Source: Eledone cirrhosa
Lineage: Eukaryota
Length of the DNA: 64,000 nucleotides
Assembly: GCA_964016885.1 (NCBI GenBank)
Contig: OZ024761.1
Coordinates: 24,428,001-24,492,000, forward strand
Direction of reading: 5' to 3'
The stretch's first letter is position 1. The number at the start of each line of letters is the position of its first letter. Below the pieces are notes generated by a model, which saw only the letters and a program-made list of their open reading frames with translations, had not been told where the DNA came from and did not search any database. Both the position numbers and the translations under genes were made by a program. Of this stretch, positions 19,463 to 20,132 are shown piece after piece.

Positions 19463-20129
19463 ATTAATAAAAGGAATTCCAACTTTGTCTGATTTACTCG
19501 TTTTATTTACAATCCTTTAAAATTTACAATGGTATTAGAATGGAATAGTATGGTAGAATATTAAATGTTAAGTGTTAATTGAACAAGTACTTTCATGCTT
19601 TCGCAATCTTCAGGTTCATAATTAACACTTAACATTTAACACTTAACATTTAACACTTAACATTTAAAACACTTAACATTTAACATTTAATACTTAACAT
19701 TTAACACTTAACATTGAATACTTAACATTGAATAATTAACACTTAACATTTAACACTTAACATTTAACACTTAACATTTAACACTTAACATTTAACACTT
19801 AACATTTAACACTTAACATTTAACACTTAACATTTAACACTTAACATTTAACACTTAACATTTAACACTTAACATTTAACACTTAACATTTAACACTTAA
19901 CATTTAACACTTAACATTTAACATTTAACACTTAACACTTAACATTTAACATTTAACACTTAACATTTAACATTTAACACTTAACATTTGATGCTTAACA
20001 TTTAATGCTTAACATTTAACACTTAACACTTAACACTCTACCATACTATTCCATTCTAATACCATCATAAATTTTAAAGGATTGTAAATAAAACGAGTAA
20101 ATCAGACAAAGTTGGAATTCCTTTTATTA

Positions 20130-20132
<3 letters not shown>
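19463..20132. mobile_element. Long fold-back element with a hammerhead at the apex and a 14-bp satellite expanded in one arm
   Basis: 19463-19579 is the rc of 19621-20132 apart from the (ACTTAACATTTAAC)n expansion at ~19625-20035. Confidence 0.9.
19580..19618 (-). ncRNA. Minimal type I hammerhead ribozyme (family H6)
   Basis: Minus strand TGAAC-CTGAAGA-TTGC GAAA GCAT-GAA-AGTACT-T|GTTCA: GNRA-capped helix II, palindromic AGTACT helix III, CUU triplet. Confidence 0.85.

Follow-up and report, generated by a model that had tools for sequence, protein, structure and literature searches.

How does a long hairpin come to carry a ribozyme motif at its turn and a minisatellite in one of its arms? The question is raised by a locus in a 64,000-nucleotide stretch of the Eledone cirrhosa genome (assembly GCA_964016885.1, contig OZ024761.1, positions 24,428,001 to 24,492,000), referred to here as the window. 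A preliminary description, made from the letters of the window, had proposed that a cDNA primed itself on the ribozyme and that a stuttering, telomerase-like polymerase then wrote the array. Our analysis suggests another history for the array. The locus is likely a 5'-truncated insertion of a Penelope-like element (PLE) with an inverted copy of its own 3' end, and the array would be a minisatellite private to this locus, with slippage after insertion accounting for most of its growth out of three 7-bp units that the element carries.

Hairpin and predicted hammerhead

The inverted arms (19460-19581 and 20013-20134) span 122 nt and are 95% complementary (blastn E 1e-49). Outside the repeat, they consist of 95 bp of unique sequence that differs at two adjacent sites only, 19527 and 19528, mirrored near 20066-20067, with one derived change in each arm relative to the family to which the element belongs. 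The two differences could stem from a CG donor, a rare allele, with opposite CpG decay in the two arms, or from two separate changes; no CG donor allele at 19527-19528 is listed at 4% or more in the family runs described below. The element reaches 19435, which is 25 bp further left than the start given in the preliminary description. That description had also placed a hammerhead at the exact apex of the hairpin, with helix I continued by the inverted repeat. The arms, of about 120 bp, and the motif at the turn are real, but the motif lies on the minus strand and runs from 19618 to 19580. Moreover, helix I pairs 19580-84 with 19614-18 (5 bp), whereas the inverted arm begins at 19620, 2 nt off the helix I register, and from there is an exact complement for 20 nt. 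The letters 19614-19620/22 are common to every family copy in the runs aligned to 19432-19660.

Table 1 Features of the hairpin locus, in positions of the window
Feature	Position	Strand	Basis or remark
(TA)n microsatellite, left end, likely target	19384..19429	.	Tandem-repeat scan; ends of family copies pass into TA-rich sequence
Optional 3' extension of 25 bp (Penelope 'tail'), on this arm only	19435..19459	-	Family loose ends
3' part of sense copy, forming the left hairpin arm	19460..19579	-	Inverted repeat and family alignment
Seed carried by the family, three degenerate 7-mers equal to 1.5 copies of the 14-mer, adjoining helix I	19558..19578	-	Same in most of the family depth
Predicted hammerhead motif, minimal type I	19580..19618	-	Motif descriptors; no Rfam match
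Inversion junction: 1-3 nt common to the family upstream sequence and the start of the inverted copy	19620..19622	.	Loose ends behind 19620 and 19622
Minisatellite, 59 7-bp units	19622..20037	+	Degenerate edges; 13 perfect 14-mers mid-array (19736-19917)
Unique part of inverted copy, stopping at the family's no-tail end	20037..20134	+	Arms and family ends
(TA)n microsatellite, right end	20130..20202	.	Tandem-repeat scan

The predicted hammerhead comprises helix I (19618-14 with 19584-80), an intact core (19613-07), and a palindromic helix III, and its predicted cut falls between 19585 and 19584. A stricter hammerhead descriptor picked out six motifs in the 64-kb window, compared with 0.005 on average across 200 local shuffles. 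Core and helix I lie on the minus strand, 120-145 nt from the 3' ends of the family, as expected of a PLE 3' repeat, and the short helix I together with the self-complementary helix III sequence (19585-19592) is what a minimal PLE hammerhead would have. Compared with the minimal type I hammerheads of metazoan PLEs, as set out in the available part of PMC4209133, the motif shares the conserved core, the 5-bp helix I, and the small palindromic helix III, which is predicted to require a dimer. It differs from them in its cut-site base, which is U, and in lacking both a long helix II and the G10.1-C11.1 pair, which is there termed highly conserved. Helix II is short, with three Watson-Crick pairs closed by U-U and a GNRA-type loop; the U-U-closed form is the family state, with no variant listed there at 4% or more. 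In the same portion of that paper, minimal PLE hammerheads with a palindromic helix III are described as cleaving weakly, likely as dimers, and the function of PLE hammerheads is still called unclear in the accessible text of PMC8557442. Judged by its letters, the predicted hammerhead is probably a weak ribozyme.

No Rfam family matched the window at gathering score. At E<=10, the region 19400-19700 gave 14 sub-threshold matches (13 miRNA and one scaRNA) with no hammerhead among them, and these were taken as generic hairpin or repeat matches. An apparent reduction of variation within the hammerhead (1 of 39 sites, against 23 of 145; Fisher P 0.03) was set aside, the P value being 0.20 once nine window-private or cut-site positions are removed.

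A dispersed family with Penelope-like features

The stretch is present, in whole or in part, in 11 of 19 listed public runs (7 studies), and no RNA run is among the listed runs that contain it. Two metagenome scans and a scan of a viral collection gave no matches, whereas a single GTDB match (L001) was attributed to chance, its flanks being unrelated GC-rich bacterial sequence. Four of the 19 runs were aligned to 19432-19660, giving 1376 contigs in X1, 31 in X4, and four in X6, as well as 2390 reads in X17; the alignments listed cover part of the data, so that all counts of loose ends and joints are lower bounds. A different upstream sequence following 19617-19622 is common to all four runs (at least 22 X1 contigs, three X4 contigs, two X6 contigs, and 645 X17 reads). 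Because other copies thus continue upstream past the ribozyme, the window copy is truncated at 19620-22, at a distance of 2-4 nt upstream of helix I. No reverse transcriptase (RT) or endonuclease gene was seen in this truncated copy, the 64-kb window holds no second copy of the family, and the 30 known letters of the family's upstream sequence have no match in the window.

At its 3' side, the family has two ends 25 bp apart. Loose ends at 19434/19435 occur in at least seven X1 contigs, two X4 contigs, and 295 X17 reads, and those at 19460, which run into TA repeats, in at least 36 X1 contigs and three X4 contigs. The left arm of the hairpin includes the tail to 19435, whereas the right arm does without it and stops at 20134, the equivalent of 19460, in a TA repeat.

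In X1, which may be the window's own source and whose depth is not copy number, depth is 747,649-764,737 over 19576-19599 and 40.9 over 19624-19660; in X4 and X6, it is 0 over the latter interval. As a fold-back at helix I or about 2.5 perfect 14-mers would add depth over 19624-19660, both appear to be very rare. No strand-change joint is among the joints listed for the four runs, in which Logan contigs lose rare variants and can collapse tandem arrays, and X17 says nothing about the junction if, as its read ends suggest, AATT was the cutting site, since one AATT lies right there. The X17 read ends at 19475/78, 19524, and 19577/80 were rejected as ribozyme or RT ends since all of them fall on AATT sites, likely those of a RAD enzyme. 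To judge by these runs, the window copy is alone, or almost alone, in having both an inversion at the ribozyme and an array.

Several features of the locus are those of PLEs. An inverted, 5'-truncated copy abuts the 5' end, one end of the inverted pair carries an optional tail (25 bp, against a published 30-40), and the family is dispersed, of high copy number, and found at AT-rich or (TA)n targets, as seen from the 1376 X1 contigs, the TA loose ends, and the TA flanks. An adjacent inverted pLTR with a tail at one end is given as the typical Penelope structure in the available part of PMC3846280, and the inverted-pLTR arrangement, the 30-40 bp tail, and the (TA)n bias appear also in that of PMC8557442. 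The EN+ PLEs covered by these two sources and by PMC11167929, each as far as its accessible text goes, resemble the locus in having an inverted copy at the truncated end, a tail at one end, TA-repeat flanks, a hammerhead near the 3' end, and a short junction overlap. They differ in that here the turn lies right at helix I, leaving the inverted copy without a ribozyme core, the tail is shorter than published, one arm holds a minisatellite, and the 3' end does not assign the element to a clade. PLEs are present in an octopus genome (PMC13282606, available portion). Overall, the locus behaves as an inverted PLE fragment would and very probably is one, known here from the 3' end of a truncated copy.

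A MITE or foldback DNA transposon was rejected because other copies leave the window sequence at 19620-22 for different upstream sequence, and a non-LTR retrozyme was rejected because there is one hammerhead only and the repeat units are 7 bp long. Non-LTR retrozymes and hammerhead satellites, as described in the accessible part of bioRxiv 10.64898/2026.07.22.740005, likewise combine PLE-related sequence, a type I hammerhead, and tandem repeats. However, they repeat the ribozyme itself, whereas the 7/14-bp unit here contains none.

The inversion and the proposed origin of the array

That a cDNA primed itself on helix I, as the preliminary description had supposed, is plausible at this locus, and self-priming had already been inferred from palindromes at inverted Penelope junctions (PMC3846280, in its available part). 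In such fold-back priming, to which we give slightly better than an even chance, the end of the cDNA would fold back on helix I with 1-3 nt of microhomology. The required pairing is possible, with 4 bp of helix I, a 2-nt bulge, and then three bases. At 19543, the letter is G in the two arms but A in 273,142 of 273,205 of the family depth in X1 and in all of it in X4 and X6, which points to one source molecule or to conversion between the arms; the X1 depths of the non-family letters at 19527 and 19543 are about 46 and 63. A near-perfect 71-bp palindrome at 7237-7307, upstream of another hammerhead, makes fold-back look real in this genome. On the other hand, the helix I hairpin is weak as DNA, at -0.5 kcal/mol for an end at 19622 (rank 69 of 143 ends) and -1.7 kcal/mol (rank 22 of 143) for an end at 19618, which keeps the helix I register. 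The right arm also stops exactly at the no-tail end, which counts against pure fold-back and is expected of a second cDNA primed at the no-tail start site and annealed through helix I, a route that we regard as a serious but lesser possibility. In vitro, a Poseidon protein nicks both target strands and extends them from two internal RNA start sites, which bracket the tail, without requiring ribozyme cleavage (PMC11167929, available text). In a second hammerhead family of the window, both inversions turn upstream of the core (by about 70 and 81 nt) and not at helix I, and neither has an array in its inverted arm. A small point of interest at the present locus is that the inversion joint, where helix I allows pairing, lies a few bases from the position at which the ribozyme is predicted to cut.

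The array (415 bases) has a period of 14, 29.6 copies, and 92% matches; the preliminary description had given a roughly 28-fold amplification in the right arm. The motif is not single in the left arm, as had been thought, since 19558-19578 holds three degenerate 7-mers, equal to 1.5 copies of the 14-mer. Most of the 59 units are TTAACAC alternating with TTAACAT, and the perfect 14-mer core (13 copies, 182 bp) lies between degenerate edges, although a clean run of that length is not significant by itself (P 0.15). Twenty nucleotides from the junction onward are found again at 19732, which hints weakly at an internal duplication of larger size. The family carries the identical three 7-mers with no insertion listed at 4% or more, the sole indel listed at that level being a 1-nt deletion outside the seed, and among the family sequence aligned, only this rearranged copy has expanded.

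Within the array, one derived substitution is common to units 14 and 16, and a second one to units 53 and 55. Two such pairs are rare under a single burst followed by 6-12 independent substitutions (simulated P 0.00025-0.0048). Since slippage re-copies its template, a variant common to neighbouring units needs a mutation first and a duplication in a later round. In addition, the distal unit differs from the third unit of the template at two sites. In the slippage history that we favour, the 7-mers would slip mostly 14 nt at a time and sometimes 7, across several rounds of replication, mutated units would be duplicated, and the end unit would be overwritten; the array touches the junction because its seed adjoins helix I. 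Tandem repeats cover 32,780 of the 64,000 window bases (51%). Seven of the eight arrays of at least 200 bp with non-simple units lie outside the eight local inverted repeats checked and at least 1.2 kb from a hammerhead, in a count that set aside rows that are shorter, that overlap, or whose units consist mostly of alternating bases. TE-derived minisatellites are common according to the available part of a review (PMC9659126), and the locus resembles them in that a small repeat inside a mobile element has grown at a single place. It differs in its host, a PLE end; the word Penelope is absent from that review. On this reading, the locus adds one case each to two known kinds, inverted Penelope insertions and minisatellites seeded by a TE.

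The stutter proposed earlier would have laid down essentially the whole array at insertion, on a cDNA self-primed on helix I. It would explain why the inverted arm opens with an exact 20-nt copy of the left arm and turns to the repeat only then, and why the private 19543 allele is common to both arms. Most unit types, including hybrid units, and the phase breaks can be produced by slips on a fixed three-unit template, and the mutation load is compatible with equal ages of array and arms, with about 4.4 substitutions expected in the array at the arms' divergence and about 4-5 independent events counted; timed in this way, the array may be hardly younger than the insertion. However, the neighbour-shared variants require mutation and then duplication, a final pass ought to have reproduced the template's third unit, the hairpin is weak as DNA, the template would be DNA, unlike that of telomerase, and words for stutter or repeat addition are absent from the in vitro Penelope study PMC11167929. 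A literature search of restricted coverage, by title and start of abstract, found no RT stutter. We consider this account quite improbable and a single telomerase-like burst unlikely. A mixed history, in which the RT, or a repair polymerase at work on the joint between the two halves, slipped a few times at insertion and so began a short array, to be lengthened later by ordinary slippage, would suit an array that begins no more than 3 nt from the junction and an expansion confined to the rearranged copy among the sequence aligned; end-joining synthesis at secondary-structure sequences has been published (PMC5728401, in the part available). Nevertheless, the adjacency is forced by the position of the seed beside helix I, and a 14-bp tandem duplication at 7107-7138, which directly follows helix I on its 3' side in a second-family copy and lies on the non-inverted arm, indicates that seeds can duplicate without a junction. 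A seeding slip at insertion is possible; the mixed history as a whole seems unlikely, though it keeps some weight.

Hairpins and short-period arrays are hard to assemble, and no listed piece spans the whole aligned stretch, as might be expected if sequencing or assembly had gone wrong, for instance by producing a fold-back chimera or inflating a repeat. Against this, the right arm stops where no-tail copies of the family naturally end, 2 of the 95 unique sites differ between the arms, the array variants are structured, and X1, possibly the window's source, provides both the depth over 19624-19660 and the non-family letters at 19527 and 19543. We attach hardly any probability to an artefact.

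In telomerase repeat addition, the template adjoins a boundary element. The 1.5 repeat units directly beside a helix resemble such a template and its boundary. The locus differs from telomerase in that no recurrent repeat addition is seen in the family, unit boundaries vary, and neither direction of a single burst reproduces the distal unit; recurrent, template-faithful addition of units from a fixed template was not found. Telomerase-like reiterative stutter as the builder of the array is not supported, in view of the neighbour-shared variants, the non-template end unit, and the near-absence of array sequence in the family. As a route by which these elements create satellites, it fares no better, given that expansion is nearly absent elsewhere in a very high-copy family and that seven of the eight comparable arrays in the window stand outside any ribozyme hairpin. 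A PLE RT might also have realigned repeatedly at a helix-bounded RNA template of 1.5 copies of the 14-mer, or at a ribozyme-cut end a few bases on, and so have written the tract, with this cDNA joining a second one through helix I and later slippage blurring the product. We regard this as very unlikely; if true, the locus would preserve a fossil record of hammerhead cleavage in vivo as well as of telomerase-like repeat addition, and would be genomic evidence for repeat addition by a telomerase-related retroelement RT.

Other elements in the window

The window is AT-rich and holds many SINE-like dispersed repeats. The second hammerhead family is PLE-like and is represented at 59934-60371, 48241-48503, and 7080-7307, with two 3' ends about 85 nt apart. 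It includes one inverted pair with a ribozyme in each arm, one arm having the long end and the other the short one, and one copy with the 71-bp palindrome upstream; both of its inversions include a short palindrome near the turn. Two more hammerhead-like motifs, at 56252 and 7842 (minus strand), belong to other families.

A dispersed element at 19190-19385, 32028-32410, and 62890-63030 opens with a near-perfect palindrome of about 115 nt (fold z about -19); its central part varies in length between copies, and its flanks are TA repeats. At 12445-13052, a 123-bp minisatellite stays in an open frame with 41 codons per unit. Its peptide, which has no Pfam match above the cut-off, presumably resembles a C-terminal stretch of LINE ORF2. 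An ORF fragment at 31646-32158 with a sub-threshold zf-RVT match (E 0.0007) is likely a LINE remnant. Finally, an element at 10815-11276 and 55392-55673 has terminal inverted arms of about 130 bp, a unique middle, and TA-repeat flanks, and is possibly an inverted retroelement end or a MITE.
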